DNA of 64,000 nt from Candidatus Nomurabacteria bacterium (GCA_943349945.1 CALQZS010000001.1:213739-277738), one strand, 5' to 3'. Shown: positions 5,137-55,351, counted from the stretch's first letter. Translations and numbers: made by a program. The notes: generated by a model not told the origin, from the sequence alone.

Positions 5137-5180
5137 TCATTAGTATACCGCCTTGGCGGCACACCTTGCACGGGATAAAA

Positions 5181-7649
5181 CTACTGTTCGATATAACTTG
5201 GAAGCAAGTTCACCACTGCGCTTGCAGAGTTAGACCCGTAGGCATTGGTACAGGTGAGGGTGAAGGTAGTCTGCGCATCCAGGGGACCAGAGTCTACATC
5301 AGCGCCAGAGAGTGCCGTACTAGAGAATCCGTTTTGTCCGGTTACGGAACATGAGATTGCGTCGGTAGTAGACCAGTCGAGTTTGGTGGACGTATCTTTA
5401 CGCACACGCGTTGGGTCGGCACTAAGAGAAATAGTTGGCAAACATTGCGTGTCTGATGGTGCTGCGACACTACAGGAGCCGTTGCACATCACCGTACCAG
5501 AACTTGTTTGGCCACAGACGTTTGCGCCGGAAGTGCATGAGTTGCCGTAGGTGGCAGGCACAGGTGGCACCGTTGCCGAGCAATTGCAGCCCGAGTCGTA
5601 AGTACCAGTGGCATAGTTGCAGGCATTTGAAACACTACAAGCAGCTCCAACGGTGCAGGCTGCCGTCACATTCACATCGGTCCATCCACCACAGTTGTTT
5701 GCTTCGTTTGACTCGGCAATGACACCTACGGTGTCGCCGCTATAGGATTTGTCGGCACAGACGCGGATGCCGTAGGTGCCAGCTGCAGGGAAGGTGTAGG
5801 ACTGGGTAGCTATGCCACTACCCCACGCAGTCAAGGCAGACATGTTGGAAGCAGCTAGGTCGGTGATGACCTCTGCAGCGTGGGCGATGTTAAAGAGTTT
5901 GGTAAAGATGTTATGTGGAGCAGTGGCTGTGGTGTTGCTGCGTACTTGGTAGAAGTTTTGGAAGCCAATGTTGGTAGAGCCACCTCCTGTGTTGGTGACT
6001 GTGGCAGAGAAGGTGGTGGGGGTGCCTGCAACTGCACTAGTAGGGGTGATGCCCGAGACCGTGAGGTCTGGGGTACCTCCACAAGAAAAAACAGGTGTAT
6101 TACCAGAAACATTCCAGTTTACAGGGTCCCCGGGGTGCACCCACGCGCTATACAAAGCGTTTGGGGTGGTGGGTACAGTTATGGATGTGCCAGAGTAGTT
6201 GTCTATATAGCAAACACGGGGATCCGCACTCCATGACGTCCATCCGCTTGCGCAGCTCTCTGTAGTTGGTCTGTAGTAGCGTGGATAGAATTTGGTAGCA
6301 CCAGCTGGCGTTGACCATGAAAGGACTGCGGATGTTCCTCCAGCGTTACAAGAGGCGGTCATTGTAGGGGCTGTGAGTGCCGTACAAGAAAACGATGACA
6401 TGTTTGCTGTCCAATTTACTGTACCGCCTACATTAGTGTGCACCCAAGTAGAATAGGTAACACCAGGAGTGATGCCCGAAAGGTAAGCGTAGGTTTCTGC
6501 AATATTATCTTTGTAACAACCGTATTCCCAATGTGTCCACCCAGCAGGACACGAAGAAAGGTTAGCGCTTACTCGCGGATAATAGGTAGCGCCAGAGACA
6601 GGGCTCCATGAGAGCGTAACGCCAGTACCACTTCCATCACACGCCGCATACACTGATGGATTACCAGCTGCTGGCGGCGCACATGCGCCATCCCCTGCGC
6701 GCAAGTACTGGTACTGTACTGGGCTGGTGTTGCTGTACTGCCACCATTGCCAGTTGTTGCCGTTGGGGTCGCTGCCGCCAGTACAGTAAGGGGTCCAGGT
6801 TATTGCAACCGGAGCTGGTACAACGTAGTACGTACGCTGACTCAATGGTGTACCCCAACTTGCACCATCATATCCAGATACAGAGAATATATATTCTCCT
6901 ATTGGCAAGTTGTACACTAAATTACCATTAGAATCTGCGACAGGGCCGTGGATATTTGCCCCTCCTTGCCACCAAGAGGTACCCGCCGCTTGCACAACTG
7001 AATATTGGGCATTTTGTGTACTCCAGCTTACCGTCGCTTGGCAAGTAGTTGCACCCGGAGCAGCGACACAAGGGCTGCTTGGATAGACAGAGAGGTTCCC
7101 GCTTACTTGAGCGGCTGGTTGGTTTGCCGGCGGCGCACAACTGACCGCAGTAAAGGAGTATCGTTCGTATGTATAGCCAGAGTTATTGCCCAATACCCAA
7201 ATCTGGTACCCAGCACCTCCGGTGAGAAGGCTTGAAAAAGACGACGACCCCGAACAAGGTACGCTGGAACCGAGAGATTGTACGAAGTTGCCCCCACCGT
7301 CGTGCAAGTTTATCCGAAGGCTACTGTCGCCGTTACTTTCACAACTAGGTGAATGACCAGATGCCGCTGTTTCGTTCCAAGAAAAAGATAGGTTGTTGCG
7401 CCCAGACCCATCACAACTAGGCCCTAAACTACCAAAACATGCAGCAACCCCCTGCCCTAGGCCAATTTGCTCAGGAGCCAAACTCACCACAGAAGCACGT
7501 TCTGATACAAACGCACCTGCAAAAACTAAACAAAAGGCAACAGTAGCCCCCGCCGCCATAAACTGTGGCTTTTTTATCAAAACAGAGGGGCGTACTATTT
7601 GCAGGAAAACTTTTTTACTGCGCTGCAAATATGTATTAAATTTTGTCAT
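5181..7649 (-). CDS. Large secreted cell-surface protein with FN3-like and CARDB-like Ig-fold repeats; Cys/Trp/Gly/Ser/Thr-rich
   Basis: 822 aa; hydrophobic signal-like segment MAAGATVAFCLVFAGAFV (alternative start at 7559); motifs GVTLSWSPVSGATYYPR (FN3-like), DLTVSGITPTSAVAGTPTTFSATVTNTGGGST (CARDB-like); two tandem ~75-aa internal repeats (YYPRVSANLSSCPAGWTHWEYGCY... / KFYPRYYRPTTESCASGWTSWSADPRVCY...). Ends 4 nt from the upstream TPR gene. Confidence 0.6.
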   Translation of the reverse strand: MTKFNTYLQRSKKVFLQIVRPSVLIKKPQFMAAGATVAFCLVFAGAFVSERASVVSLAPEQIGLGQGVAACFGSLGPSCDGSGRNNLSFSWNETAASGHSPSCESNGDSSLRINLHDGGGNFVQSLGSSVPCSGSSSFSSLLTGGAGYQIWVLGNNSGYTYERYSFTAVSCAPPANQPAAQVSGNLSVYPSSPCVAAPGATTCQATVSWSTQNAQYSVVQAAGTSWWQGGANIHGPVADSNGNLVYNLPIGEYIFSVSGYDGASWGTPLSQRTYYVVPAPVAITWTPYCTGGSDPNGNNWQWWQYSNTSPVQYQYLRAGDGACAPPAAGNPSVYAACDGSGTGVTLSWSPVSGATYYPRVSANLSSCPAGWTHWEYGCYKDNIAETYAYLSGITPGVTYSTWVHTNVGGTVNWTANMSSFSCTALTAPTMTASCNAGGTSAVLSWSTPAGATKFYPRYYRPTTESCASGWTSWSADPRVCYIDNYSGTSITVPTTPNALYSAWVHPGDPVNWNVSGNTPVFSCGGTPDLTVSGITPTSAVAGTPTTFSATVTNTGGGSTNIGFQNFYQVRSNTTATAPHNIFTKLFNIAHAAEVITDLAASNMSALTAWGSGIATQSYTFPAAGTYGIRVCADKSYSGDTVGVIAESNEANNCGGWTDVNVTAACTVGAACSVSNACNYATGTYDSGCNCSATVPPVPATYGNSCTSGANVCGQTSSGTVMCNGSCSVAAPSDTQCLPTISLSADPTRVRKDTSTKLDWSTTDAISCSVTGQNGFSSTALSGADVDSGPLDAQTTFTLTCTNAYGSNSASAVVNLLPSYIEQ

Positions 7650-7652
7650 ATA

Positions 7653-8453
7653 CTACTTCTTTGCTTGAGCTAGAGATAAATTTGCCTCTATTGCAGCTTG
7701 GAAAGCTTTGATGCTTGCCTCTATCGAGGCTGGGTCGTTGCCCGAATATGCTCGGTGCCATTGTTTTGGGGTCACCTCGCGAGCCAACGCAAGAGCTTGT
7801 GTAAAAGAAGCTTCCGCGTCTACATAGTGTAACCTGTTTAATTGCGCCAACCCCAAAGAATTCCACAACCAGGGGATATCTTTTGCCTCCGGTACTTTTA
7901 TAAAAGCATCTTGGATAACAGCTTCTGATTCTGTGTACTTGCCCTCTTTGGCTAATACGAATGCCAAATCGTTGTATCCACCCCACTCTGCAGGCGCCCA
8001 AGCAACAAAATTTCTAAAATCCTCCTCCGCTGCAGACAGGTTGTTTAGACTTATATACGTAAGCCCGCGCACATATAGGGAGCGTGGGTTGTAGGGGAAC
8101 AAAATTAATTCTGCATTGATATGTGCGAGCGCTCTATCAAGCTGGCCGTCCACAAAATAGATACGCGCCAGCTGGTAGCGCACCAATTGCGTCGCCGGGT
8201 CCAGCTGCAGCGCCAGTTCATATGACGCGGCAGCTTTGCGCAAGTTGTATTCCCCACCGCCAAAGTAGTAGTTGCCTAGTTGCGCCGCCAACGCGGCATC
8301 TGAGTGATTGAGGTAGTACGCAGCCGTTGGTGAGTGAGTATATACAAAACTGGCCACAAACTTTTGAAACGAAGGCGGCGCAACCCACCAAACTACCACC
8401 AAAAGACATAGGGCAAACAAAAATAAGAAAGCGTATGTGCGGCGGCGCATCAC
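7653..8453 (-). CDS. Membrane-anchored TPR-repeat protein
   Basis: 266 aa; N-terminal TM (AFLFLFALCLLVVVWWVA); TPR-like repeats (YELALQLDP..., ARIYFVDGQLDRALAHINAEL...). The annotated start is GTG; an ATG follows 3 nt later. Confidence 0.65.
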   Translation of the reverse strand: MMRRRTYAFLFLFALCLLVVVWWVAPPSFQKFVASFVYTHSPTAAYYLNHSDAALAAQLGNYYFGGGEYNLRKAAASYELALQLDPATQLVRYQLARIYFVDGQLDRALAHINAELILFPYNPRSLYVRGLTYISLNNLSAAEEDFRNFVAWAPAEWGGYNDLAFVLAKEGKYTESEAVIQDAFIKVPEAKDIPWLWNSLGLAQLNRLHYVDAEASFTQALALAREVTPKQWHRAYSGNDPASIEASIKAFQAAIEANLSLAQAKK

Positions 8454-8550
8454 ACTACCTAGTGTACGCTATATATCAGCAACAAAAAGTGGAAAACTAC
8501 AAATGAGAAGACCCAACGCCGCGAGTGCAACGTTGGGTCTTGTGCCGGAA

Positions 8551-8841
8551 TCATCCGGACTTCGAGGACAGGCTCTGCGTAAGGACCTGCGCCAGGCCCT
8601 TGGCATAGTCTGCGGCGTTCGCCGCGTCGAGCCCCATGTTCTGGTCGGTGTACGACCCGACACGGAGCCCGTCGATGCGCGCCTGCTTCAGCGTGACTTC
8701 CGCCACCTTGGCGCGGTTGAGCGCCGCGTCGCAGACGAGGTCCTTCTGGCAGGCCGCCCGCTCGTCGAAGCTCAGCTCCTGGCCGAGTGCGGGGCCGGCA
8801 AGCGCGATCATGATTACAAAGAAACGTCCGATATTACGCAT
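8551..8841 (-). CDS. Small secreted protein (signal peptide) in a high-GC patch
   Basis: Start MRNIGRFFVIMIALAGPALG-QELS...; GGAGG RBS 5 nt upstream; high GC; a 174-aa ORF on the opposite strand (8437..8961) is judged a GC artefact. Confidence 0.5.
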   Translation of the reverse strand: MRNIGRFFVIMIALAGPALGQELSFDERAACQKDLVCDAALNRAKVAEVTLKQARIDGLRVGSYTDQNMGLDAANAADYAKGLAQVLTQSLSSKSG

Positions 8842-8896
8842 AACAACCTCCATTGGATGTTTCGGTGCGTCCCACCTTGGGCCACCAATACATACT

Positions 8897-8925
8897 ATCT
8901 TAGCATGTTAAGCAAATTTTGTCAA
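8897..8925 (-). promoter_or_regulatory. Sigma70-like promoter (TTGACA-17-TAAGAT) for the 8551..8841 gene
   Basis: Read on minus strand: ttgaca + 17 nt + taagat, ~50 nt upstream of the start codon. Confidence 0.4.
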
Positions 8926-9055
8926 GTATTTTGTAGCGACCCAACATCCAAGAGGTATTGACTTTTATATAATAAAAGTGTCAAGTAACCTTTAGTTGCA
9001 ACCCGTTCCTTCCCGCCTTGGGCGGCATAGGACCACATACCAGTCGAGGTATCCA

Positions 9056-9475
9056 ATGATTAAAGTGTTCTTGTTGGCGGCTCTCACTGCGCTATCCCCT
9101 TCCACACTTGTAGCGCAGTCAAAGGAAGTGCCGAAACAGTGTCGGGCGGCCTGGACAATCACAGACGACCCAAGCAAGCGGCACGAGCGCAACACTGGAG
9201 CAGGTCTTGTTGATCTGCTCCAGAAGCGATACTACTCCAAGCCAGGCATAGAGGCATTCCATAGCCCACCAGAAAGCGGCTCTGGGTACGTATACTCAGT
9301 CCCAATTGTCGTGGAAGATTTACCGAATGGAGGTAAGCAATTTACCTTCAATCGAAAGAACGACAATGCGTTTGTAATCGGCACCCTGCATCAAATTCCG
9401 GACGGCCGATGGGAAATGGCACTTTCAGTACAATTGCTAGGATACGTAACGGCAACTGGCCTTTGTATCGAGTAG
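9056..9475 (+). CDS. Small secreted protein (signal peptide)
   Basis: Start MIKVFLLAALTALSPSTLVAQ (ATG at 9056 within the longer 8996 ORF); no recognisable domain. Confidence 0.5.
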   Translation: MIKVFLLAALTALSPSTLVAQSKEVPKQCRAAWTITDDPSKRHERNTGAGLVDLLQKRYYSKPGIEAFHSPPESGSGYVYSVPIVVEDLPNGGKQFTFNRKNDNAFVIGTLHQIPDGRWEMALSVQLLGYVTATGLCIE

Positions 9476-9494
9476 CTCGCCCATGCGCACAAAA

Positions 9495-9521
9495 GCCCTG
9501 CAAATATGTTATTTGCAGGGC
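9495..9521 (+). terminator. Perfect 12-bp stem hairpin (gccctgcaaata-tgt-tatttgcagggc) after the 9056..9475 gene
   Basis: Inverted repeat read directly; the U-tract is weak. Confidence 0.4.
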
Positions 9522-9580
9522 TTCCACTATAAAAACTGTATAAATGCTTACACAAGTATATAGTTAATACAGTGAGGGGG

Positions 9581-9609
9581 TTGACTTTTACACAATAAAG
9601 GTATATAAT
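9581..9609 (+). promoter_or_regulatory. Consensus sigma70 promoter TTGACT-17-TATAAT
   Basis: ttgact (9581-9586), 17-nt spacer, tataat (9604-9609); AAGGAG RBS at 9666 precedes ATG 9679. Confidence 0.5.
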
Positions 9610-9678
9610 AAAGCCAGTTGTAACACGGCACATTTTCCCATTTGGGAAGGCGTGAGTAACATAGCAAGGAGAAAGTAC

Positions 9679-10152
9679 ATGCGTATTTTGTTCGCACTTA
9701 GCATGCTGTTGCTCCCGAGCCTCTCTTGGGCGCAGCAGTACACACCGATCCCCAAGGGGAAGCAGTGCTTTGCACTGCTCGGAGAAGAGCGCGCCCCGCC
9801 CGGAGTGGCGACAATGAGCCCATCCACCGTTCCTGGTCGAGGTTCCGTCTTGATGTCGTTTGAAGAAAACGGCACCGTTCGGCTCTACTTCAAGCGCTCG
9901 ATCGACCCGTACAATGCGGCATTAAGCGGAAAACCTTTCAATGAAGTCGCCCGGTCAATGATAGACCGGGGAAACCGTCCCATCACTCAGATGGACCGCT
10001 GGCTTTCATTCGACCACGGCACAGCGGATCCGAGCAACGAACAAACGTACCAGGTTACCATAGGGCCAGATGGTGGCCCTCTCGGGCGAGCGATTTCTCG
10101 CAACGGGCAATTCTCGGTAACCAAACCACTATGTCAGTCCAAGATCGGCTGA
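9679..10152 (+). CDS. Small secreted protein (signal peptide MRILFALSMLLLPSLSWAQ)
   Basis: ATG at 9679 with AAGGAGAAAG Shine-Dalgarno; consensus promoter upstream; no recognisable domain. Confidence 0.55.
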   Translation: MRILFALSMLLLPSLSWAQQYTPIPKGKQCFALLGEERAPPGVATMSPSTVPGRGSVLMSFEENGTVRLYFKRSIDPYNAALSGKPFNEVARSMIDRGNRPITQMDRWLSFDHGTADPSNEQTYQVTIGPDGGPLGRAISRNGQFSVTKPLCQSKIG

Positions 10153-10162
10153 ACATGGCACG

Positions 10163-10197
10163 AAATCGCCGGCGCACCCATGTGCGACCGGCGATTT
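10163..10197. terminator. Bidirectional hairpin terminator between convergent genes
   Basis: aaatcgccgg...ccggcgattt 10-bp stem followed by ttttttctt. Confidence 0.5.
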
Positions 10198-11476
10198 AAC
10201 TTTTTCTTACAAATAAATTTCTCCAGTTTTGTTTTTTATTTTCACCTAAACTTTCGTTTGGATACAGTATGTTTTTTAACACAGCCACCAACCTATCAAC
10301 ATCAGATCTTTCGTTATACACATAAAAACTAGCCCGACACACACCAGCAGTATCTATTGTTTTGACCAATGGCATAGCGCAATGATACCCTCCTCTACTG
10401 GAAATGTGCTGCTTGCCCAAGGCTTGAGTTACTTGCATCGACGTAACGTCCCTCACAACAAAAGACACTATACCGATATTTTTTTGCTCATTCTTTTCAG
10501 AAACAATTGTAATTTCTGGTATACGACTCAGAGACTCTGTGCAATATTGCACTAAATCTTGCACATGAGACGAAATAGACTCAATCCCTAAAGACTCTAT
10601 GTATTCTACGGCTGCGGCCAAGCCGATCGCCCCCGCAATATTTGGTGTACCCGCCTCAAAACACATAGGAGAATCTCGATATATCGTTTCTTCTGGCGAA
10701 ACACTCTTGATAGCTCCGCCACCACTAAAAATTGGCTGCAATTTAGCAAATATGTCTTTTTTGCCGTACAAACCTCCTATGCCTGTAGGACCGAGCATTT
10801 TGTGACCTGAAAAAAATAAAAAATCGCAGCCTAGTGTTTGTACATTCACGTCCACATGCCCTATCGCAGTAGTTGCATCAACTATAGTTACTGCACCACA
10901 CTCTTTTGCTTGTCGTATAATCCTCTGGACATCATATATTGTGCCCAAAACATTACTTGCCAAAGGTATGGCTACAATTTTGGTTTTTGAACTTATTAGA
11001 TTTTGTGCAACATCATAATCTAACTCTGTACCCTTCAGAGGAATGAGTTGCATCTTTGCTTTTGTCCGCTTAGCTAACTCTTGGAATGGAATAAAGTTTG
11101 AATGGTGTTCTGAAACACTAACAACAATGCCGTCGTGCGGTGTAAGATTTAAAAACTTTTCAAGCATCAGCACGAGCATGTTTAACCCCAAAGTAGCACC
11201 GGGAGTAAACACCATCTCCTTTGTCTCTGCATGAATAAACTTAGCCACCGTAGCACGTGCCTGTTCATAGGCATGTGTTGCCTCCACGCTGAGCGCATGC
11301 GGCCCACGGTGAACATTTGCTCGGTAGTTAAAGTAATAATCATTCATAGCCTCCACCACTTGCTGTGGGGTTTGCGACGATGCCGCAGAGTCCAAATACA
11401 CAAGACTTTGTCCATGTGTATCTTTATAGTTTTTAAAGATAGGGAAATCTTTTTTAATTGTTCCGACGTTTATCAT
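10196..11476 (-). CDS. Cysteine desulfurase, class V aminotransferase (SufS/NifS family)
   Basis: PLP-lysine motif SGHKMLGPTGIG; N-term MINVGTIKKDFPIF...LVYLDSAASSQTP aligns with SufS starts; the track ORF extends 12 codons further to a GTG at 11512. Confidence 0.8.
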   Translation of the reverse strand: MINVGTIKKDFPIFKNYKDTHGQSLVYLDSAASSQTPQQVVEAMNDYYFNYRANVHRGPHALSVEATHAYEQARATVAKFIHAETKEMVFTPGATLGLNMLVLMLEKFLNLTPHDGIVVSVSEHHSNFIPFQELAKRTKAKMQLIPLKGTELDYDVAQNLISSKTKIVAIPLASNVLGTIYDVQRIIRQAKECGAVTIVDATTAIGHVDVNVQTLGCDFLFFSGHKMLGPTGIGGLYGKKDIFAKLQPIFSGGGAIKSVSPEETIYRDSPMCFEAGTPNIAGAIGLAAAVEYIESLGIESISSHVQDLVQYCTESLSRIPEITIVSEKNEQKNIGIVSFVVRDVTSMQVTQALGKQHISSRGGYHCAMPLVKTIDTAGVCRASFYVYNERSDVDRLVAVLKNILYPNESLGENKKQNWRNLFVRKS

Positions 11477-11589
11477 AAAATGCCTGCAATGGTCACAGTG
11501 TACACTAGCCATTTCTTAATCACACAGGGCACGGACCGTGATATGTTTTAGATTTGTAGAACTGCTTTATATATCCTAAACTTATCTCT

Positions 11590-13023
11590 ATGGGCCGTGT
11601 TTTTGAATATCTTCAAGTGGTATTGTTCAAAAAAACTCTTTCACGGTACGCAAAACTACTTCCAAAAGATTTTTTCACAACTACCACTACTAAAAAAACT
11701 GAATTATATAAAAATTTACTACGTGCAGAAATAGAAACAATTAAACAACTCCAAAAAGAAGAGTTTGAATTTGTCAAAAAAATACAACTTCTTCGCTTAA
11801 GAGAAGTGCTTGTGTTAGCCGCACAGACAAGGTGGTGGAACAATTACTTTCTGCAAAAGAAAGTTGCTTGGAAACGTATTGCTACTTTTGATGACTTACA
11901 AACTATCCCACCTATCACCCGCAACAATATTGTGGATGTAGAAAAAAAGGACCTTCTACTACTAGAGGCTAACGACCCCTCATTACTGTGGCGCAGCTCC
12001 AGCGGCAGTACGACAGGCACCCCTGTCGTGTGGGGTTTAAATAAAACAATTCTAATCTTAAACGTATTAGCAAGTTTATTAATACAACTCGAAAAAAGAG
12101 GTTTTTTACTTAGCGCAAATCTGAATCATAAATTTTGCCTCCACTACAATATGTTTATGACAGCCGACAAGCATGCTTTTAAATGGTTTGCTCAACCGGA
12201 CTTCCATATCCCCAACCACAGCAGTGACCGTCGTAAAAAAACTATAGAGCTAAGTTTAATTATTGCTCAAACGCAAAATCTAGTCCTTTTTACCAGTCCT
12301 AACGAATTAATTTCCCTGGTAGACTCTTTTAGAGATATTGGCGATCGACCCCATATACCTTTTATTATTACAGTTGGCTCTCCGCTACCTCCACACGTTC
12401 GTGACACCACAACGCAGTACTTCCACTCTCAAATATTTTCTTTCTACGGCGCACAAGAAACAGGACCCTGTGCAATAGAGTGCGTAAACGTTAAGGACGC
12501 CTATCATGCATTATCAGACCGAATAATTTTAGAGCTCCTTGATGAACACAATCGGCCCGTAAAAGAAGGCGAAGCGGGATTAATTACCGTAACCTGTCTG
12601 GACAACACCGTTATGCCACTTATCCGATACCAACCAGGTGACTGGGGAGTGTTCGTTTCTAACTCTCTGTGCACATGCGGCAATCACTTTCCTTTATTTA
12701 AAGTACTGGAGCGCACCACCGACGTGGTTACTTTTAGCACCGGAGAGCGTCTGTCTATAGTCCCAATTTTAAGATTTTTTAACAGACCTCCTTATATTTC
12801 TTTTGTGAGGCGCTTTCAGATCGAACAAGATCGACACGATCACATCATTGTGAGACTTGAAGTTAAAAAACTATTATCTGAAACCGCCATAACTAGACTT
12901 CACGAAAGAGTTGGGCGTATTTTTAAAGGCAAACTTCAGGCAGATGTTGTGCAAACCACAAACCTTACGCAAGAAAACCCAAAATTTAGAGTATTTATAC
13001 CCTTAAAAACACCGCGACCTTAA
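11590..13023 (+). CDS. PaaK/CapK-like adenylate-forming enzyme (phenylacetate-CoA ligase superfamily)
   Basis: 477 aa; AMP-binding P-loop-like SSGSTTGTPV; strongly AT-rich compared with flanks. Confidence 0.5.
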   Translation: MGRVFEYLQVVLFKKTLSRYAKLLPKDFFTTTTTKKTELYKNLLRAEIETIKQLQKEEFEFVKKIQLLRLREVLVLAAQTRWWNNYFLQKKVAWKRIATFDDLQTIPPITRNNIVDVEKKDLLLLEANDPSLLWRSSSGSTTGTPVVWGLNKTILILNVLASLLIQLEKRGFLLSANLNHKFCLHYNMFMTADKHAFKWFAQPDFHIPNHSSDRRKKTIELSLIIAQTQNLVLFTSPNELISLVDSFRDIGDRPHIPFIITVGSPLPPHVRDTTTQYFHSQIFSFYGAQETGPCAIECVNVKDAYHALSDRIILELLDEHNRPVKEGEAGLITVTCLDNTVMPLIRYQPGDWGVFVSNSLCTCGNHFPLFKVLERTTDVVTFSTGERLSIVPILRFFNRPPYISFVRRFQIEQDRHDHIIVRLEVKKLLSETAITRLHERVGRIFKGKLQADVVQTTNLTQENPKFRVFIPLKTPRP

Positions 13024-14090
13024 TTTACGACTATCCCAAGTTTATCTAAAAAAACTCTAAACTCTGGGGAAATTTTAGCCAGCTTGATTGCTACCATTTT
13101 ATTGAAATTAGTATCAGGAACGTTCTTTAGGTTTGCAAAAAAACGCAACTCCTCTGACAAAGGATCAGCATCTGCAAAAGGCTGGAGAATAGCACGTATA
13201 TCCTCTTCTCTATTCAATTGAGATGAAACAAGATTTGCATTATAAAAACGAGCGCGCCAAATAATTATAGATGGGTTTTTATCTTGTCCTGTCGCTTTAG
13301 CAGTATCAAAAACCAGAGCATAGGCATCTTCTGCCTCTTTTACTGATTCTGCGGGTGATCCGAGCAAGAAAGAAATACGACCCAACGATACAGCTCTGTG
13401 GTAATATCCATGGACAAGAATTGATGGTGAATAAATCGACTCATCGTGGCGAGAATCCCCATCTTTCACATATTTCATCATCATCTCTGCGGTTTCTTTC
13501 GGATCCGCAGCAGTGGGATTACTTACACTTAAAGATGCGTACTGATGCGCAATTGAATATTCTGCCCACGACGTTGGGTATGTATCGTCTGAGTATTTAA
13601 GCAACGCAAGGTATGCAGCGCTGACTTTTTGCGCCTCGGTACCTTCTGCTGGCACAAAGGCATTATATGGAGCTTCGCTAAAGTGAATTTGGTAGAAGGA
13701 TAGACTCGAGTCGTTTACAAAACGGGCAATACTGTTGAGCGCCTGGGCGCGCCACGCAGCAGGTATTGAGTAGTCGTTCACTACTTCTTTTAAGGTTTTG
13801 ATTGCTTGGGTGCGGTCACCGCTTTGGTTTCTAAACCAATAACTCACCCCAAGTAGGATTTTGAGCCGTCCAAATTCTGATTTATTTGGCGCCTGAGCAA
13901 TAAGGGTCGGCAGGTTATTAATGGAAGCCGCATAGTCTCCCGACACAAACGTATCGTACGCAGCCCTAGCATCAGCTTGATATGTGTTGCTTTGTTGAGG
14001 CATGTAAAATCGCATGTAGTATATATACCCGAAAACAACAGCCCCTGAAAGTATTAAGGCGAGCAGTAGTAGAGTGTAACGTTTTCCCAT
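13020..14090 (-). CDS. Membrane-anchored hypothetical protein (AT-rich gene)
   Basis: Start MGKRYTLLLLALILSGAVVFGYIYYM (ATG at 14090 inside the longer track ORF); a single N-terminal TM followed by a large soluble domain. Confidence 0.5.
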   Translation of the reverse strand: MGKRYTLLLLALILSGAVVFGYIYYMRFYMPQQSNTYQADARAAYDTFVSGDYAASINNLPTLIAQAPNKSEFGRLKILLGVSYWFRNQSGDRTQAIKTLKEVVNDYSIPAAWRAQALNSIARFVNDSSLSFYQIHFSEAPYNAFVPAEGTEAQKVSAAYLALLKYSDDTYPTSWAEYSIAHQYASLSVSNPTAADPKETAEMMMKYVKDGDSRHDESIYSPSILVHGYYHRAVSLGRISFLLGSPAESVKEAEDAYALVFDTAKATGQDKNPSIIIWRARFYNANLVSSQLNREEDIRAILQPFADADPLSEELRFFANLKNVPDTNFNKMVAIKLAKISPEFRVFLDKLGIVVN

Positions 14091-14103
14091 AAATATTATC
14101 AGG

Positions 14104-14373
14104 TTAACAAGGACTTTCGCTATCACCAGCACCTTCTGGAGAATCTGATTCACACGCATCACCTTCACCCCCGCCAGCACCAACACCTTCAGCTGATGTG
14201 TTTGTACTGGGGAAGTCTGCATGAGCTGTATTGAGCCCAAAATCTTTTGCCAGTTTTTCCTGTTCTTGTGGGTCAGACTGTGTAAACCTCGCAACCAATC
14301 CACCAAAAAAGACAAGTGCTGTAAGCGCACTGAGTGAAACAAATCGGAGTGATAGTTGTAGTAGGCTTCTCAT
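14104..14373 (-). CDS. Small secreted acidic protein (hypothetical)
   Basis: 89 aa; N-terminal hydrophobic segment, acidic Gly/Glu/Asp-rich C-terminus; 13 nt upstream of the next gene. Confidence 0.35.
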   Translation of the reverse strand: MRSLLQLSLRFVSLSALTALVFFGGLVARFTQSDPQEQEKLAKDFGLNTAHADFPSTNTSAEGVGAGGGEGDACESDSPEGAGDSESPC

Positions 14374-14426
14374 ATATTGTTTAGTGTAGCAGGCTGGCTA
14401 CTATTGAACACCCAACTATCCCCACC

Positions 14427-14912
14427 TTAGTCTTGTGCCGGAATGCGCTCTGTATCCCCCACCACTGGAAGCCCCGCATCTGCCCAGTGGTTTAGCCCAC
14501 CCTCGATACGCAGCAGGTTTTGGAATCCTTCTCGCTCTAAGTAGCCGTAGGCAACCCCGGCCAGGCGCCCCGTCGAGCAAATAAGTACTATTTTTTTGCC
14601 CTTTTTAGGCAATACGGTACGGTCGTCAAATAAGTTTGCTATAGGTTCGCTTATAGAGCCCTGCGCATGGGCAATATCATACTCTCTTTTGCTCCGCACA
14701 TCCAACAGCAAGTATGCATCAGGGTTTTTTTGATAGTCCTCCCAAAAAGCAACAGGGTCGACATCGTGCATTGTTGGCTCAACAAAGTTCATCCACTTAA
14801 GTGGGGTTAGGTAAATAACCGACGCCGCCCCCACCCCGCCCACCAATAGTCCAATAATTAGAAAAAGTGCTGCAGACCAGGTAAAAAGTGTTCGACGTAT
14901 CCACGTAAGCAT
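14427..14912 (-). CDS. Membrane-anchored rhodanese-domain sulfurtransferase
   Basis: 161 aa; N-terminal TM; catalytic loop CSTGRLAG (Cys-x2-Gly-x-Arg); lies 28 nt downstream of ycaO. Confidence 0.75.
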   Translation of the reverse strand: MLTWIRRTLFTWSAALFLIIGLLVGGVGAASVIYLTPLKWMNFVEPTMHDVDPVAFWEDYQKNPDAYLLLDVRSKREYDIAHAQGSISEPIANLFDDRTVLPKKGKKIVLICSTGRLAGVAYGYLEREGFQNLLRIEGGLNHWADAGLPVVGDTERIPAQD

Positions 14913-14940
14913 ACGAAAATTGTATCACGGACAAAAACTT

Positions 14941-16323
14941 TTATGGGAAAGGGTGCGGGTACGTGTTTGTTGGTTCCACCCCACCAAGCACCGGGGTCGA
15001 GAAGCGTTCGTGGAGTGCGAGTTTGTACAACCCTGGTGCAAGTAAGCGCACAGAGTGGAAGCCTACCTCGTCTAGGTACGGCTGCTTTGCTTGCACCACG
15101 CACAGCTGCCCCTTTGCCAAAACCTTAAGCACATCCACTGGATGGTTTGCCTTCTTTTTTAGCAAATCATCAAACAACACTTCCCTGCCTGCCAAAAAGA
15201 GCTCGCCATTTTTTGCTATATGCGCTTGAGACCATGCGTGTATACGCTTAACGTCTGTGATAGAGCGATCACAAAAACCAGCGGTGAGTGTTGTTTCACT
15301 CAATACAGGTGCTTGTGTGTTGTTAGCACCATCCATCGCCCAGGTATATACAGACAAGGCTTCGCACACTGCACGCTCCACAGCCCCGCAGTAGTCCACT
15401 TTTGTGGCCATACCCACAAACCAGCCCAACCCCGGCTTGGTAAGCACTGCAGCAACCGACGGCGTACCGTCTACTAATGTACAGTCCAGCAAGTGAGCAG
15501 TGAAGTCGTATGCAGACACTGCGCGCAATAGTGTTTTTGTGCCCTGCTGTGCCAGCGGGCTTTGCAACACGCTATGCAATGCAATTTTTGGTGGAGCTTT
15601 TTTTGCATACCAATGGGTAAAAAAGCTGTGTCGCTGCAACAGCTCTGACGCACCGCTGAGTACAGCCTCGCCGTATGTATATCCAGCACCAAGGCCATTG
15701 GTATTCATCTCGCCTAGCAATGGCTCGCCCTTTTGTCGCTTGTACCCCCAGTGCAAAAGTTGTGCTGGCACCCACGTAGGCGCCTGTGTAAAAATGTTTG
15801 TTGCTTGCACCCATCCAAAAACAGAGTCCTCGTCCCACACCAAATCAGTAAAGGTCTCTTTCTGCTTCTTGGTTGTTTGTGCCAGCTCAAAGATAGGAAA
15901 CACAGACTCTTTTTGCTCCTGTAATTTTTTGTAGCTTGCATGCACCACCTGTTGCCCAACAGGCACAAACCGCATAGACACGCGTTCGTACAGCTCGCCA
16001 AATGCCCTGGCAACTGCCTCGTCTAAAGACAAGGCTGTCCCTCGTGCAAACACTCGCCCATCTATTGCCCGCAAACCCACATCATAAAAATGCACATTCG
16101 GGGCCAGCTGGAGCGCCCGCGAATAGCCAACTGTTTGGTGTAGAATATTCTGCCTCTGTGCTTGTGCTATCAATTTTTTGTGCGTGTCGGTTGTAGCTAT
16201 GTTCCCCTGTGCCGTAACGCCCGAGAATAGGTGTGTGTCCCGCACCGCGGATACATACTGCGCAAATAACCCACCGGGGGTTTTAAAACGTGTATGAAAT
16301 TCGAGCAACTCGCGGATGTTCAT
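14941..16323 (-). CDS. YcaO-domain protein (ATP-dependent peptide backbone-modifying enzyme family)
   Basis: YcaO ATP-binding motifs ALSLDEAVARAFGELYERVS and NTNGLGAGYTYGEAVLSGASELLQRH; C-terminal PxPxP (PHPFP). The ATG at 16323 overlaps the upstream gene's TGA stop as ATGA (translational coupling); the track start at 16356 is GTG. Confidence 0.8.
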   Translation of the reverse strand: MNIRELLEFHTRFKTPGGLFAQYVSAVRDTHLFSGVTAQGNIATTDTHKKLIAQAQRQNILHQTVGYSRALQLAPNVHFYDVGLRAIDGRVFARGTALSLDEAVARAFGELYERVSMRFVPVGQQVVHASYKKLQEQKESVFPIFELAQTTKKQKETFTDLVWDEDSVFGWVQATNIFTQAPTWVPAQLLHWGYKRQKGEPLLGEMNTNGLGAGYTYGEAVLSGASELLQRHSFFTHWYAKKAPPKIALHSVLQSPLAQQGTKTLLRAVSAYDFTAHLLDCTLVDGTPSVAAVLTKPGLGWFVGMATKVDYCGAVERAVCEALSVYTWAMDGANNTQAPVLSETTLTAGFCDRSITDVKRIHAWSQAHIAKNGELFLAGREVLFDDLLKKKANHPVDVLKVLAKGQLCVVQAKQPYLDEVGFHSVRLLAPGLYKLALHERFSTPVLGGVEPTNTYPHPFP

Positions 16324-17195
16324 ACGTTTTTTTGTTTGTCGGCCAATAAGTAGCACAGCCCCACCAGCACATGCATATGCACGTCGTCTATATATAGTGT
16401 GTTTGGTTGCGAAAGAATGTGCTCGTGGTACTTCCCCAGCGTCTGTTTTGCGTAGTGGCTTGTGGCCCGCTCGTGCAACAGCCGTGTGTAAAGCCGCTCG
16501 ACCAACGCAGCATCGGCCGCATAGTAGGCCAGCACTTCAAACACCTTGCCCACAGGAGACGACCACGCACGAACCCCCGTGTGTAGGTCTTTAAACCAGC
16601 CGTCGGCAGTGTAGCAACTTTCTAAATATTGATACTCCTGTTGAGCCAGCTCTGGTGCCGCACTTTTTGCCCAGACCAGAGTGTCTGCATAATCAAAAAA
16701 ACGACCCTGCCTTGGCGCCAAGCAAAGATTGTACCGCAGCACCTCTTGTAAGTATGTAGTGTGCGGCAGAGGTTTGGGCAGCAGCCCCGAAAGTCGCAAA
16801 TACAAACCCACGGCAATGGGATGCGACAACATATCGGGCACAAGAGCTTGGTGCACTAGTGCAATAGACACCTCTTTTTTTGCATATGCCTCTGCGAGCG
16901 CCGTATACAGCATGATGTAGAGTTTTTGAATGGGAGTTTGCGACTCAAGATTGTCTTGCACATACCGCTCTGACAAGTTTATCTGCTTTTGTATATCCAG
17001 CGTTGGGACAAGTTGTTGCGCAAACATGAGCGCCATGTTTGCCATAGACTGTCGCACAATATCTTTCTTTCTGTCTATAGAATCGGAGACTGTTATGTAG
17101 GAAGGGATCATCCCTTCTGCGTCTTGGGTTAGGAGAATTTTTTCGACATGCCACGCAATACGTGCCTCCAGAGAGTCTCCCGTAACATCTTCCAT
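16320..17195 (-). CDS. Hypothetical protein translationally coupled to ycaO (candidate YcaO partner)
   Basis: 291 aa, largely helical-looking; no recognisable motifs; its stop overlaps the ycaO start. Confidence 0.55.
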   Translation of the reverse strand: MEDVTGDSLEARIAWHVEKILLTQDAEGMIPSYITVSDSIDRKKDIVRQSMANMALMFAQQLVPTLDIQKQINLSERYVQDNLESQTPIQKLYIMLYTALAEAYAKKEVSIALVHQALVPDMLSHPIAVGLYLRLSGLLPKPLPHTTYLQEVLRYNLCLAPRQGRFFDYADTLVWAKSAAPELAQQEYQYLESCYTADGWFKDLHTGVRAWSSPVGKVFEVLAYYAADAALVERLYTRLLHERATSHYAKQTLGKYHEHILSQPNTLYIDDVHMHVLVGLCYLLADKQKNV

Positions 17196-17220
17196 GGCCT
17201 GATTATACTCAATGGTGCAG

Positions 17221-17249
17221 ATTGACTTATGTATATATAGGTGGTATAA
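17221..17249 (+). promoter_or_regulatory. Consensus sigma70 promoter TTGACT-17-TATAAT
   Basis: ttgact (17221-26), 17-nt spacer, tataat (17244-49); AGGAGG RBS precedes ATG 17281. Confidence 0.55.
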
Positions 17250-17280
17250 TTAAAAAAGAGTACAACAGGAGGACTTTTCC

Positions 17281-17706
17281 ATGAACGTTCTGCAAATTGC
17301 CGCCCTGGCACTGCTTGCTTTGGCAGGATGTGCCACAGACAAGCCAACAAGCGCCGTCGCCGACCCCACCAAACTGGTCGCGGGGAAGCGGTTCACCGGC
17401 AACACCACCCCCGACGTGCGCTGCGTGGGCACCGGATGTTATGGGGGCATCGAATTCAACTTCGACGCCACGGATGTCTCCATACGATTTTTGGGAGACA
17501 AAACCATCGAGCCGGGCAGCCTACTGCTGGCGCGCGGAGCCGTCCATCGAGGAGTCTCCAGCTTTGCCATCGAGGGCGGCGAGATCGAATTCTCGGATGC
17601 ATCGAACCGCAAGTACAAGCTGTGGCACGACGGCACCTGTCTAACCGGCAGTGCACACACGATCACGAACCTACACTCAAGCGTCCGGGCATGCCCGGTG
17701 CGTTAA
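17281..17706 (+). CDS. Lipoprotein (lipobox LALAGC) in a high-GC cassette
   Basis: 141 aa; signal peptide plus LAGC lipobox; the gene is bracketed by a consensus promoter and a strong terminator; overlapping ORFs on both strands indicate high GC. Confidence 0.6.
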   Translation: MNVLQIAALALLALAGCATDKPTSAVADPTKLVAGKRFTGNTTPDVRCVGTGCYGGIEFNFDATDVSIRFLGDKTIEPGSLLLARGAVHRGVSSFAIEGGEIEFSDASNRKYKLWHDGTCLTGSAHTITNLHSSVRACPVR

Positions 17707-17722
17707 GTCCACCCCAAACACC

Positions 17723-17770
17723 AAGGCGATGCTGGAAATCTTCCACCAGCATCGCCTTTCTATTTTTCTA
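17723..17770 (+). terminator. Rho-independent terminator (13-bp stem aaggcgatgctgg/ccagcatcgcctt + T-run)
   Basis: Read directly; followed by tctatttttct. Confidence 0.55.
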
Positions 17771-17950
17771 TATACAGAGAGAATGGTTGTTTTATGCATC
17801 CATTGACTTCTGCCCACAAAAGGGATATTCTGTGCACATCTGGTAACTGCCCCGAGTGGGTGGTTTTTTTCGTTCTAGAGATATACAGAACGCCAGTGAC
17901 TATATATCTCAGACCCTGTTAAATCCCACTACTCATTAAGAATTTATATT

Positions 17951-27409: not shown

Positions 27410-28513
27410 ATGTCGTCTCGCGTATTATTGGGCACCTACATAGCCGCAGCAGTTATAGCCGCAGGGACACTGCTTGCCGCGCCAGCCACCACCTTGCCGC
27501 CTGCCACCGTGGCCACTAAAGAACCTCTGTCCGCCATACCCGCCACGACAGGAGGCGTCTTCCCTGTAGCCGACGATAGGCCAACCCTCGCAACCAGCAC
27601 ACCAACGGACGCACCCACACAAGTAGCCGCAGTTGCTGCAACGCCTACATCTACAGAAGCCACGCCCGCACCCGAAACAAGTGTGGATGTAAATGCCAAA
27701 ACCCGCGCAGCGCTGGTTAATATTTTTTGCTCATCCAAAAACGGCGGGCCCATTAGCGGCAGCGGCATCGTGGTCGACAGTCGCGGCGTCATTTTGACCA
27801 ACGCGCACGTCGGGCAGTTTTTACTTTTGCAAAACGCACTCCCCGACCAAGTGCAGTGCACGGTGCGCACCGGCAGCCCCGCCAAGCCCGCATACCATGC
27901 CAAGCTTTTGTACCTCTCGACCGCATGGATGGCAGAGAACGCCGACAAAATAAGCGAGAAGCACGCAACCGGCAGCGGCGAAAACGATTACGCGTTTTTG
28001 TATATCACCGGCCCGGTCGAATCTGCCACCATGGGCGAGCTTTCCGCTGTAAAGATGACTACCAACCGACCATCCCGCGGCGCCCCTGTGTTGTTGGCAG
28101 GCTACCCAGCCGGCTTTTTGGACAGCGCCACCATAGAGAAAGACCTCTATATCACTTCATCGTTTACCACGGTCGAAAATTTGTTTACCTTTAACGACAA
28201 CGACCAACAAGTGGACTTGGTGTCTGTGGGTGGCACGGTTGTCTCACAGTCAGGCGCATCGGGCGGCAGCGTAGTGCGCCAACAAGACGGCACCTTGCTT
28301 GCGGTGATAGCCACCGCGACAAACGCAAGCAACACTGCTGCCCGCGACTTACGCGCCATCACCGTGGCCCACATAGACCGCAGCCTCGCTGCCGAGGGTA
28401 AGGGCGGCATCATCGCACTCTTGACCGGAGACTTGCCCCAAAAGGTGGCGGACTTTCATACACAACTCGCCCCCGAGCTTACGCAAAAATTGTTGGACGG
28501 CTTAAAAAAATAA
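27410..28513 (+). CDS. Secreted trypsin-like serine protease (S1 family, no PDZ domain)
   Basis: Catalytic triad context TNAHV (His), NDYAFL (Asp), SGASGGSV (Ser); signal/TM at the N-terminus; the track ORF begins at a TTG at 27353. Confidence 0.7.
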   Translation: MSSRVLLGTYIAAAVIAAGTLLAAPATTLPPATVATKEPLSAIPATTGGVFPVADDRPTLATSTPTDAPTQVAAVAATPTSTEATPAPETSVDVNAKTRAALVNIFCSSKNGGPISGSGIVVDSRGVILTNAHVGQFLLLQNALPDQVQCTVRTGSPAKPAYHAKLLYLSTAWMAENADKISEKHATGSGENDYAFLYITGPVESATMGELSAVKMTTNRPSRGAPVLLAGYPAGFLDSATIEKDLYITSSFTTVENLFTFNDNDQQVDLVSVGGTVVSQSGASGGSVVRQQDGTLLAVIATATNASNTAARDLRAITVAHIDRSLAAEGKGGIIALLTGDLPQKVADFHTQLAPELTQKLLDGLKK

Positions 28514-28550
28514 AGTCCCGCGACCACAAAAGTGGGGCAGGACTTGGACT

Positions 28551-29076: not shown

Positions 29077-29082
29077 CATTTC

Positions 29083-55346: not shown

Positions 55347-55351
55347 ACCAC

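Follow-up and report, generated by a model that had tools for sequence, protein, structure and literature searches.

Background

YcaO enzymes are sorted by the partner protein with which they act (E1-like/RRE, TfuA or none), and it is the partner that largely sets substrate recognition and chemistry. In the TOMM/LAP cyclodehydratases (McbB/McbD, SagC/SagD, BalhC/BalhD), the YcaO "D protein" ends in PxPxP and its partner, the product of an adjacent coupled gene, is an E1-like protein with an RRE; a small Cys-containing, Gly/Ser-rich precursor is encoded nearby. Thioamide-forming YcaOs associated with TfuA include the archaeal enzyme that acts on McrA (McrA-Gly) and those of the thioviridamide type. 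Azoline formation by YcaOs is associated with a C-terminal PxPxP motif, which inserts into the active site (PMC12338566; PMC6395948). Modification of the C-terminal residue by a YcaO was not known until the daptides were described (PMC12338566). The E. coli-type YcaO, formerly the 'RimO accessory factor', is now reported to thioamidate uL16 at Met82 (PMC13063428), which renders outdated the RimO/S12 framing that had been applied to the locus described here. Outside the YcaO family, bufferins and oxazolins depend on an MNIO enzyme with a DUF2063 partner; bufferin precursors contain Cys, carry Sec signal peptides and rely on a special type of partner protein (PMC12452194).

Here we report the analysis of a YcaO locus in a 64,000-nt stretch of a Candidatus Nomurabacteria genome (GCA_943349945.1 CALQZS010000001.1:213739-277738), hereafter the window, in which all ORFs of note were confirmed as present. 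A preliminary description had proposed a triad operon of an unrecognisable 291-aa protein, a YcaO and a rhodanese, with a nearby SufS cysteine desulfurase as the start of a persulfide relay. Comparison with related loci retains the first two members of this scheme, points to a small neighbouring gene as the source of a candidate substrate, and argues against the relay.

Results and discussion

The conserved unit is a coupled pair of genes

The gene for the 291-aa cytoplasmic protein (16320..17195, minus strand) immediately precedes that of the YcaO (14941..16323, minus strand; 460 aa from its ATG). The ATGA overlap noted previously is present (...AACGTATGAACATC), with the YcaO ATG lying over the upstream TGA, and the 4-nt overlap recurs in 10 of 12 loci, very distant relatives included; it is kept even in P0034, which matches the family profile at just E = 1e-13. 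Every occurrence of the 291-aa protein is accompanied by a YcaO, of which it appears to be the obligate partner, and the two families are of matching rarity (12 and 14 clusters). That the two genes are neighbours by chance and their products unrelated is, although a complex of the two is itself an inference, effectively refuted by overlap down to such remote members, matching rarity and strict co-occurrence; we regard it as extremely improbable. Conservation of the proposed triad across relatives therefore holds in part: the conserved unit is the 291-aa protein and the YcaO only, and neither rhodanese nor SufS belongs to it. The pair is found in just a few Parcubacteria, one strain of which (L031) has it in truncated form.

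The YcaO partner is an (alpha/alpha)6 barrel

The 291-aa protein matched no Pfam or NCBIfam family, as its earlier designation as unrecognisable had anticipated. A confident structure model shows an (alpha/alpha)6 barrel, and structure comparison recognised its twelve-helix toroid of six helical hairpins. The suggestion that it represents a new partner class is supported by this fold, which is unrelated to TfuA, E1-like proteins and RREs. The protein itself belongs to none of these three groups. Its family and that of the YcaO are both tiny, the 291-aa protein having 7 matches in 1.84 billion representatives.

Could the barrel itself be the catalyst? A pocket formed by D-x-H-x-H, K/E and D/R/Q residues might support a YcaO chemistry not yet described, for instance non-canonical nucleophile delivery or a follow-up reaction on an azoline, acting on a secreted substrate with a Cys tail. 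The nearest structural neighbours are all enzymes, and the polar residues D44, R47, Q48, K216, E219, D270, H272 and H274 are kept family-wide, distant members included, at helix starts and in loops, where the active sites of alpha/alpha-barrel enzymes are located. The altered metal/ATP motif of the YcaO (see below) points the same way. However, identity to these neighbours is 6-13%, the protein shows no recognised catalytic signature specific to an alpha/alpha-barrel family, and the conservation is equally explicable as a peptide- or YcaO-binding surface; we consider a catalytic barrel rather unlikely.

A SagD-like YcaO with a variant ATP/Mg motif

The 460-aa protein has the YcaO fold and matches Pfam PF02624 at 150.6 bits (cut-off 25.7) over residues 95-432, covering positions 2-324 of the 325 in the profile. 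Of the YcaO motifs listed in the preliminary description, SLDEAVARAFGELYER, NGLGAG and the C-terminal end ...NTYPHPFP are present, whereas the second nucleotide/Mg motif reads ELLQRH rather than ExxERD. PHPFP, a PxPxP motif with a terminal Pro, is invariant across the subfamily, and the ATP/Mg2+ site is conserved at GELYER, E227, R231, E321 and R360. The second Glu of ExxERD is replaced by Gln in all 15 subfamily members, at a position where TruD, LynD, MusD, Mk-YcaO and MJ1094 have Glu; the ExxQRH signature is confined to barrel-linked YcaOs, whereas solved YcaOs have ExxERD. This replacement could signal altered or reduced ATP chemistry. Residues 1-45 are conserved in sequence, yet unstructured in the model (pLDDT <50), a pattern that fits a segment which may fold upon partner binding.

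The best family match was TIGR03604 SagD, which is full-length and reaches 142.6 bits but stays below the trusted cut-off of 219.25. The McrA-thioamidation family methan_mark_1 (TIGR03266) scored 49.7 bits against a cut-off of 365. The E. coli-type model NF040716 gave 13.9 bits, and the combination of score and C-terminal dimerisation domain that marks this type was not found; what the two have in common is their YcaO fold and the first of the ATP-binding motifs. The earlier statement that no TfuA, E1-like or RimO partner is visible withstood profile searches and tblastn, which found no TfuA, E1/ThiF, RimO or nitroreductase among the approximately 46 window ORFs scanned. TfuA (PF07812) matched no neighbour of the YcaO, ThiS was absent from its vicinity, and the scanned window ORFs gave no ThiF/E1 match.

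The locus thus resembles the TOMM/LAP systems in its PxPxP-bearing D-type protein with SagD as best profile, in the second protein from an adjacent coupled gene, and in the small Cys-containing, Gly/Ser-rich candidate precursor nearby. It differs from them in its barrel partner, its ExxQRH motif, a SagD score below cut-off, a TM- or signal-like leader on the candidate precursor, and the lack of a dehydrogenase in the window, where tblastn with the L013 nitroreductase found no SagB-like azoline dehydrogenase, an FMN-dependent enzyme that is optional in such clusters and marks the azole formers. A further link to the TOMM/LAP type is that three related loci (L008, L013 and L024) carry a second, paralogous YcaO with a SagB-like nitroreductase, in divergent orientation beside a small-protein/anchor gene pair of their own. 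From the TfuA-associated enzymes the window locus differs in having neither TfuA nor a ThiS-like carrier, in its methan_mark_1 score far below cut-off, in the presence of PxPxP, and in its neighbouring sulfur enzymes, of which SufS lacks conservation and the rhodanese is predicted to be extracytoplasmic.

A small protein with a conserved leader and a hypervariable Cys tail

The interval between SufS and rhodanese had been taken for an AT-rich islet; it holds three genes, all conserved in relatives, for an 89-aa protein (14104..14373, minus strand), a TPR-like helical, membrane-anchored protein of about 356 aa (13020..14090, minus strand) and a PaaK-like adenylate-forming enzyme. The 89-aa protein, encoded 0.6 kb downstream of the YcaO, matched no known family; its architecture recurs in 16 instances. 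Its N-terminal segment is hydrophobic; the protein also has a conserved AHAD motif and a Gly/Ser/acidic tail that contains two Cys and ends in ...DACESDSPEGAGDSESPC. A comparison with L011 over the first 54 codons shows 28 nucleotide differences, of which 23 fall at third positions; the codon changes that result are 19 synonymous and 5 non-synonymous. The gene is coding and under purifying selection. Identity to the L011 protein is 91% in the leader and 40% in the tail; precursors of modified peptides usually show such a contrast between a leader that is conserved and a tail that is hypervariable. The leader has a TM-like segment, with the AxAD motif 19-25 residues beyond it, and this arrangement is typical neither of RiPP leaders nor of signal-peptidase sites.

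The number of tail Cys goes with the presence of the YcaO. In each of the 11 YcaO-linked small proteins the tail has two or more Cys, the last at most 5 residues from the C-terminus (in the window protein it is the C-terminal residue). The five from loci without YcaO (L021, L027) or of unknown context have one Cys or none, and never closer than 11 residues to the end; the comparison covers few, phylogenetically related loci, and three of the contigs counted as lacking a YcaO are short. The 89-aa protein is therefore a candidate YcaO substrate.

The gene just after the small protein always encodes the anchor of about 360 aa; every related locus has a homologue of it, as have 8 metagenome loci. 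The window copy has an N-terminal TM segment and weak TPR matches; its ORF, longer as listed, was taken from the ATG at 14090, which matches the N-termini of the homologues. In every locus with sufficient flank except L015, no more than 5 kb separates this gene pair from the barrel-YcaO pair, and the two adjoin each other in eight of nine informative loci despite rearrangements.

These data bear on whether the enzyme pair acts on another protein, such as the anchor, a CARDB protein or a distant housekeeping protein (in the manner of the E. coli YcaO and uL16, or of the archaeal YcaO and McrA), with the small protein a mere neighbour in an envelope locus. There are precedents for YcaOs whose target is a full-length protein and which have no precursor gene close by (PMC13063428). 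L021 and L027 carry the small-protein/anchor pair without any YcaO within 10 kb, and the primary function of that pair therefore does not require a YcaO; conversely, L015 has the YcaO pair and no small protein within 5 kb downstream. Against a different target stand the adjacency maintained through rearrangements and the Cys content that tracks the YcaO, and an essential housekeeping target is unlikely because the enzyme pair is confined to few Parcubacteria and truncated in L031. Overall, we judge another target improbable, and take the 89-aa protein as the candidate substrate in what follows.

No support for a relay from SufS and the rhodanese to the YcaO

The rhodanese (14427..14912, minus strand; 161 aa) matches PF00581 at 47.3 bits (cut-off 22.2; 3.1e-12), and its ATG does lie 28 nt past the YcaO TAA, as described before. 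Its catalytic-Cys loop, previously read as CxxGxR, has the sequence CSTGRLA and thereby the CxxGR form seen in PspE. The N-terminal 19-mer has a mean KD of 2.48, and its N-flank is more positively charged than its C-flank. By this N-in/C-out charge bias of a signal anchor, which is a heuristic only, the catalytic domain would be outside the cell, and it is therefore predicted to lie away from the cytoplasmic SufS and YcaO.

Gene order does not bear out a triad operon, for only four of nine loci have the rhodanese directly after the YcaO; in the others it comes after a DsbA-like protein. Its gene lies after that of a membrane-anchored DsbA-like protein in L005, L008, L013, L024, L025 and L030; in seven loci it is linked to the DsbA and anchor genes, not to the YcaO; and it also occurs in loci without the barrel-YcaO pair (L022, L024, L025). 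What constantly accompanies it is the small protein and the anchor rather than the YcaO, and together with those two it travels with DsbA, TPR and CARDB proteins. A multi-TM CxxC protein is also found near it in some loci. With periplasmic PspE/DsbA systems the rhodanese shares a single domain, a CxxGR(Q/L) loop, a predicted extracytoplasmic location and, in relatives, a DsbA-like oxidoreductase beside it, although PspE is soluble and the window protein is membrane-anchored. In E. coli, PspE has a functional link to thiol oxidation, and such a link may hold here.

The class V cysteine desulfurase (10196..11512, minus strand; 426 aa from 11476, the start in relatives) is SufS-type, with 464.2 bits to TIGR01979, below the cut-off of 475.1, and 420 bits (1e-125) to Aminotran_5. 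Of the possible SUF partners (SufE/SufU/SufBCD), no scaffold genes were found among the window ORFs scanned. SufS is found in two of nine loci, namely the window and L029, the allele nearest to it; in L009 and L011 an FAD-linked oxidase (FAD_binding_4) occupies its place, and L005, L008, L013 and L030 lack it. SufS is thus strain-specific island cargo and not a conserved part of the system.

According to the original proposal, SufS persulfide would pass through the rhodanese to a YcaO with a TfuA-like 291-aa partner, giving backbone thioamides on an unspecified peptide or protein. Such a relay finds no support in the absence of SufS from seven of nine loci, with an FAD-linked oxidase instead in two of them, or in a rhodanese whose anchor predicts an extracytoplasmic domain, which follows a membrane-anchored DsbA-like protein in six loci and persists in three without the enzyme pair. 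Nor do the YcaO features favour thioamidation: methan_mark_1 reaches 49.7 of the required 365 bits, neither TfuA nor ThiS is nearby, and PxPxP is associated with azoline formers (PMC12338566). We therefore hold the thioamide relay to be decidedly unlikely.

A proposed envelope island

The PaaK-like enzyme (11590..13023, plus strand; 477 aa), convergent with the anchor gene, gave partial NCBIfam matches to DVU_1553-family, FlxY and PaaK ligases (1e-26 to 1e-10); a gene in the equivalent position occurs in L009, L011 and L029, and identity to the L011 copy is just 33%. A TPR protein (7653-8453, minus strand) and an 822-aa CARDB/fn3 surface protein (5181-7649, minus strand), both identified by Pfam matches, form the distal, recurrent portion (5181..8453) of an envelope module; such genes adjoin the anchor, DsbA and rhodanese genes in L005, L008, L011, L013, L021, L024, L025 and L027. 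The locus belongs to an island that is hypervariable between strains, and we read the whole of it as an envelope or secretome island of Parcubacteria.

A proposed mechanism

We consider it plausible, if still tentative, that the barrel and the YcaO cyclodehydrate Cys in the tail of the secreted 89-aa protein, within an envelope island in which rhodanese and SufS form no relay. The divergent SagD-like YcaO and the barrel from its translationally coupled upstream gene would constitute a two-protein cytoplasmic enzyme, the barrel replacing the E1-like/RRE "C protein" of thiazole/oxazole synthetases. The barrel may hold the substrate, possibly via its hydrophobic, signal-peptide-like leader, and perhaps completes the unusual ExxQRH active site. 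Using ATP, the YcaO would activate backbone amides beside the tail Cys, giving one or more thiazolines. The modified protein would then be exported or anchored through its hydrophobic N-terminal segment and, outside the cell, might meet the TPR-like anchor, the rhodanese and, in relatives, the DsbA-like oxidoreductase.

The proposed system shares with bufferins and oxazolins a signal-like hydrophobic N-terminal segment and conserved Cys in the candidate substrates, a partner type that correlates with the signal peptide, an extracytoplasmic final location, and acidic Cys-bearing tails that would suit metal binding; the enzyme here, however, is a YcaO and not an MNIO. A bolder extension, which we put forward as doubtful, is that the barrel represents a new class of YcaO co-enzyme for Sec-targeted substrates, which may mask the leader and may catalyse via D-x-H-x-H. 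The product would be an acidic, Cys-derived C-terminal tail, heterocycle- or otherwise backbone-modified, on a secreted or anchored protein of these ultra-small CPR bacteria, and could bind metal or serve as a strain-specific surface or competition determinant.

Conclusion

A strictly coupled barrel partner whose fold is unrelated to the others, combined with a metal/ATP motif that is altered throughout the subfamily, would be a fourth arrangement beside those described for YcaO enzymes, and the barrel, the YcaO and the 89-aa protein offer a concrete three-gene set for tests in E. coli. The locus also cautions that proximity of a rhodanese and a desulfurase is in itself insufficient to infer a sulfur relay. 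If the substrate assignment is true, the 89-aa protein would combine modification by a YcaO with a signal-like leader, a leader type to our knowledge documented so far mainly in MNIO-modified bufferins, and the system would be among the few for post-translational modification described in CPR bacteria. Its placement in a strain-hypervariable envelope island suggests a role at the cell surface or in interactions between strains.

Gene content of the YcaO locus

Five closely packed genes occupy the minus strand of the window: a 291-aa ORF (16320-17195), a 460-aa YcaO (14941-16323; Pfam YcaO, 150.6 bits), a 161-aa rhodanese (14427-14912; Pfam Rhodanese, 47.3 bits) with the active-site loop CSTGRLA, an 89-aa ORF (14104-14373) and a gene of ~356 aa for a membrane-anchored, TPR-like protein (13020-14090), referred to as the ~360-aa anchor. 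As first described from the sequence, the ATG of the YcaO gene overlaps the stop codon of the 291-aa ORF as ATGA, and the rhodanese gene starts 28 nt past the YcaO stop; the 89-aa ORF starts 53 nt past the rhodanese, and the anchor gene 13 nt past the 89-aa ORF. Convergent with this array, a plus-strand gene encodes a 477-aa PaaK-like adenylate-forming enzyme (11590-13023; partial matches at 1e-26), followed on the minus strand by a SufS-type desulfurase (10196-11512; Aminotran_5, 420 bits; TIGR01979, 464 bits, just below the cut-off of 475). The stretch of GC 0.40-0.43 that had been taken for an AT-rich islet is in fact coding and contains three conserved genes, those of the 477-aa, ~356-aa and 89-aa proteins. 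Scanning the window for promoter and terminator consensus sequences gave background level only; co-transcription is a possibility. A small lipoprotein encoded upstream (17281-17706) was dropped as a member of the system because, among the related loci, only L009 has a homologue of it.

The window further encodes PGK, TIM, a PilB-type ATPase, NusA, pyrophosphatase, trigger factor, ClpP, RNase Y, PNPase, a CCA-adding enzyme and many orphan ORFs, among them four consecutive large ORFs (497, 294, 777 and 938 aa; 52925-60455) that lack a Pfam match.

A rare gene pair conserved in order

Among 5.8 billion proteins the 291-aa family forms 12 clusters, and an exhaustive search of 1.84 billion representatives with its profile returned seven real matches. 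The YcaO subfamily forms 14 clusters at at least 50% identity, the next match lying already down at 25%. Relatives of the 291-aa protein come from metagenome-assembled genomes labelled Candidatus Parcubacteria, Adlerbacteria and Kaiserbacteria, and the window's organism is likewise a CPR bacterium. The source samples are glacier-fed stream and lake metagenomes. The two genes are neighbours, in unchanged order, at all the loci recovered. Of 12 loci, 10 show the 4-nt overlap (the window, L005, L009, L011, L013, L019, L020, L029, L030 and L031), the remaining two, L008 and L015, having a spacer of 5-7 nt, and the arrangement extends to the distant family member P0034, whose match to the family profile reaches only E 1e-13. 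Given this record, we regard a chance adjacency of the 291-aa gene and the YcaO gene as extremely improbable.

The preliminary description had grouped both genes with the rhodanese as an operon, next to SufS. The pair is kept; rhodanese and SufS are not part of the conserved unit. SufS is confined to the window and to L029, the closest allele; it is absent from L005, L008, L013 and L030, and in L009 and L011 a FAD_binding_4 oxidase sits at its position. In only four loci (the window, L029, L011 and L009) does the rhodanese come directly after YcaO; in six others (L005, L008, L013, L024, L025 and L030) it comes several kb away, behind a membrane-anchored DsbA-like protein (Thioredoxin_4, CPYC).

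The 291-aa protein is a predicted (alpha/alpha)6 barrel

Neither the 291-aa protein, already noted as unrecognisable, nor the small proteins (89 aa in the window) belong to any Pfam or NCBIfam family, the sole matches being low-complexity ones to Ser/Asp-repeat adhesins, and the profile of the 291-aa family had no match among PDB sequences. With a 12-sequence alignment as input, AlphaFold2 gave a confident (alpha/alpha)6-barrel model (pLDDT 89.8, pTM 0.91). The protein is none of the usual YcaO partners, that is, neither TfuA nor E1/ThiF-like nor an RRE. No TM-like segment was found in it, and it should therefore be cytoplasmic. Several polar residues are conserved throughout the family, distant members P0031, P0033 and P0034 included (D44/R47/Q48, K216/E219 and a D-x-H-x-H motif at 270-274), and in the model they map to helix starts and loops, the region of the pockets in barrels of this fold. 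A catalytic barrel with a new chemistry, for which such conserved residues might be cited, is a reading that we consider unlikely. In the literature searched on YcaO proteins in CPR/Patescibacteria and on non-canonical YcaO partners, no account of a YcaO paired with an (alpha/alpha)6 barrel turned up, and the suggestion that the 291-aa protein represents a new partner class is backed by comparative and structural evidence.

A SagD-like YcaO with an altered motif at the putative ATP site

The best family match of the 460-aa YcaO is the SagD-type cyclodehydratase, a family of azoline formers (142.6 bits over the full length, below the trusted cut-off of 219), as against 49.7 bits for the McrA-thioamidation family and 13.9 bits for the E. 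coli type. Its C-terminus reads PHPFP, a PxPxP motif with terminal proline. Such a motif goes with azoline-forming YcaOs, where it inserts into the active site, and Ec-YcaO has a dimerisation domain in place of the PxPxP C-terminus (PMC12338566; PMC6395948).

Every barrel-linked YcaO, including the distant enzyme of L019, carries the sequence ELLQRH where the alignment shows ExxER(D/E) in TruD, LynD, MusD, Mk-YcaO, MJ1094 and the paralogous YcaOs of the same genomes. The Glu that is changed in the barrel-linked enzymes is a probable Mg2+ ligand, to judge from the alignment to five solved YcaOs and from the E202A variant, which serves as an ATP-site mutant of Ec-YcaO (PMC13063428). By our reading of the motif, the Glu replaced by Gln would be the same as that of E202A.

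Residues 1-45 of the YcaO are conserved in sequence (IRELLxFHTRFxTGxGFF), yet are modelled at pLDDT <50, which fits a segment that might fold on a partner. An RRE hidden in this N-terminus was considered and rejected: the segment models as disordered, which argues against a built-in domain of this type.

A candidate substrate with C-terminal cysteines

That the 89-aa ORF is a real gene is shown by a comparison with L011: the first 54 codons contain 28 nt differences, 23 of them at third positions, with 19 synonymous and 5 non-synonymous codon changes. Sixteen homologues share one architecture, composed of a hydrophobic N-terminus, a spacer of 19-25 residues, an A-x-A-D motif (AHADF, AHADA, AFADY, ANADT or ARADA) and a low-complexity tail rich in Gly, Ser, Pro and acidic residues. 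In the comparison of the window with L011, the leader shows 91% identity, as against 40% for the tail and 63-69% for the flanking proteins; precursors of modified peptides usually combine a conserved leader with a hypervariable tail in this way. Type IV pilin, sortase-type and C-terminal sorting signals were considered for the small protein and rejected, since it has neither a G-F-x-x-x-E motif nor a TM segment at the C-terminus.

At least two tail Cys are present in each of the 11 small proteins from YcaO loci; the first typically precedes E, Q or D, and the last is no more than five residues away from the C-terminus. The tail of the window's protein, DAC-ESD...SESPC, ends on Cys. Five further small proteins, two from loci that lack a YcaO gene (L021 and L027) and three whose context is not known (L022, L026 and L028), have 0-1 tail Cys, no nearer than 11 residues to the end. 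Tail Cys content tracks the presence of YcaO, which is suggestive, but the loci are few and related. That the pair acts on a different protein is doubtful in light of this co-variation, even with small-protein genes occurring in loci without YcaO.

Relatives also encode a second, paralogous YcaO of 482-510 aa with a normal ExxER motif, together with a SagB-like nitroreductase (L008:3139-6909, L013:2636-6479 and L024:7145-11005); in L024 this is the only YcaO. At all three loci these genes are divergent from their own copy of a small Cys-tailed protein and a ~370-aa anchor, no E1-like protein is visible beside them, and one of the small-protein tails ends in ...GGGSGCGCE, resembling microcin B17. 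The window has no counterpart of the paralogous YcaO. In L013 a phosphoribosyltransferase-like domain fused to a PQQ-type beta-propeller (982-2610) adjoins the pair of nitroreductase and 510-aa YcaO.

An envelope module around the pair

Comparison loci for the surrounding genes were fetched by means of the ~360-aa family (a metagenome scan with the type-B subset). A profile search for this family among 5.8 billion proteins gave at least five matches. A recurrent array was found, in the order small protein, ~360-aa anchor, DsbA-like protein, rhodanese, TPR protein and CARDB surface protein. In the window, the TPR (7653-8453) and CARDB (5181-7649) genes lie 6 kb away. The 822-aa CARDB/fn3 protein is directly adjoined by a PilB/T2SSE-type ATPase (3391-5136; whole region 3391-7649), which hints at an envelope module linked to a pilus or secretion system. 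L021 and L027 contain the small-protein, anchor, TPR and CARDB genes, and no YcaO, DsbA-like or rhodanese gene was present in 10 kb of flank on either side.

The rhodanese, DsbA-like, ~360-aa and small proteins all have an N-terminal hydrophobic 19-mer (mean KD 1.9-2.5) whose N-flank is more positive than its C-flank; by the positive-inside rule, a heuristic, an N-in/C-out topology is predicted. Taken together, these data place the rhodanese in a putative extracytoplasmic thiol-handling module and not in a cytoplasmic relay with SufS and YcaO. The preliminary description was largely correct in its observations, and its idea of a new partner class found support; its persulfide relay did not, SufS being mostly absent and the rhodanese linked to DsbA and predicted to lie outside. 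Thioamidation through such a relay now appears rather improbable.

Two further proteins were observed in type-B loci. A multi-TM protein of ~170-175 aa with a conserved GFGCA(S/A)CGT (CxxC) motif, without a Pfam family, is encoded convergent to YcaO (L005:13054-13566, L008:12286-12810, L030:2927-3454, L025:558-866) and may partner the DsbA-like protein in thiol redox chemistry at the membrane. Directly upstream of the barrel gene, a secreted protein of ~235 aa carries a YHS (metal-binding) domain just under the Pfam cut-off (L005:9197-9907, L008:9133-9831).

A tentative mechanism

Gene anatomy, folds, co-occurrence, the altered YcaO motif and the selection acting on the small gene are what the analysis shows; we infer a complex, a substrate, a chemistry and an order of events as follows. 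The barrel and YcaO would form a putative cytoplasmic two-component amide-activating enzyme, in which the barrel would take the role of the E1-like/RRE protein. The pair may convert the tail Cys of the small protein to thiazolines, and the modified protein would then be exported via its hydrophobic N-terminus. Thiazolination of the tail before export is a possibility that we put forward with some reserve. The nearest precedent is provided by the bufferins, Cys-containing precursors with a Sec-type leader and a dedicated type of partner, which has been suggested to keep the signal peptide masked until the modification has been completed (PMC12452194).

A hypervariable, dispensable island

Compared with L011, a near-identical strain, nucleotide identity is 98.0% in the flank that encodes trigger factor, pyrophosphatase and NusA (NusA protein, 100%). 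Leftward from ~17280 identity falls suddenly to 74.7%, a level that holds for the genes of the barrel, YcaO, the rhodanese and the small protein; the ~360-aa gene in its 3' part, the PaaK-like gene and SufS do not align, and TPR and CARDB are back at 84%. Compared with L029, the flank is 94% and the island 87.6% identical. The comparison covered 6846-21097; the hypervariable island has low GC (0.40-0.43) at 10-14 kb. The PaaK-like gene (11590-13023) has retained its length of 477 aa and its position relative to L011 (8198-9631) at 33% amino-acid identity, with NusA identical, which indicates either allele replacement or extreme divergence. Elsewhere in the window lie a tyrosine recombinase of the phage-integrase family (36737-37840) and four minus-strand tRNA genes (Gly-TCC, Pro-TGG, Gly-GCC and Arg-TCG; 27209-32597), no tRNA gene being placed at the island boundary.

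The system can decay, as exemplified by L031 (3370-6028), where the barrel is intact and only 128 aa of the YcaO N-terminus are left, joined to the gene of a large surface protein. The drop in identity to L011 and L029 and the truncated YcaO of L031 therefore indicate a dispensable, fast-evolving island, and a role at the surface of the cell or in inter-strain competition fits the locus better than a housekeeping modification.
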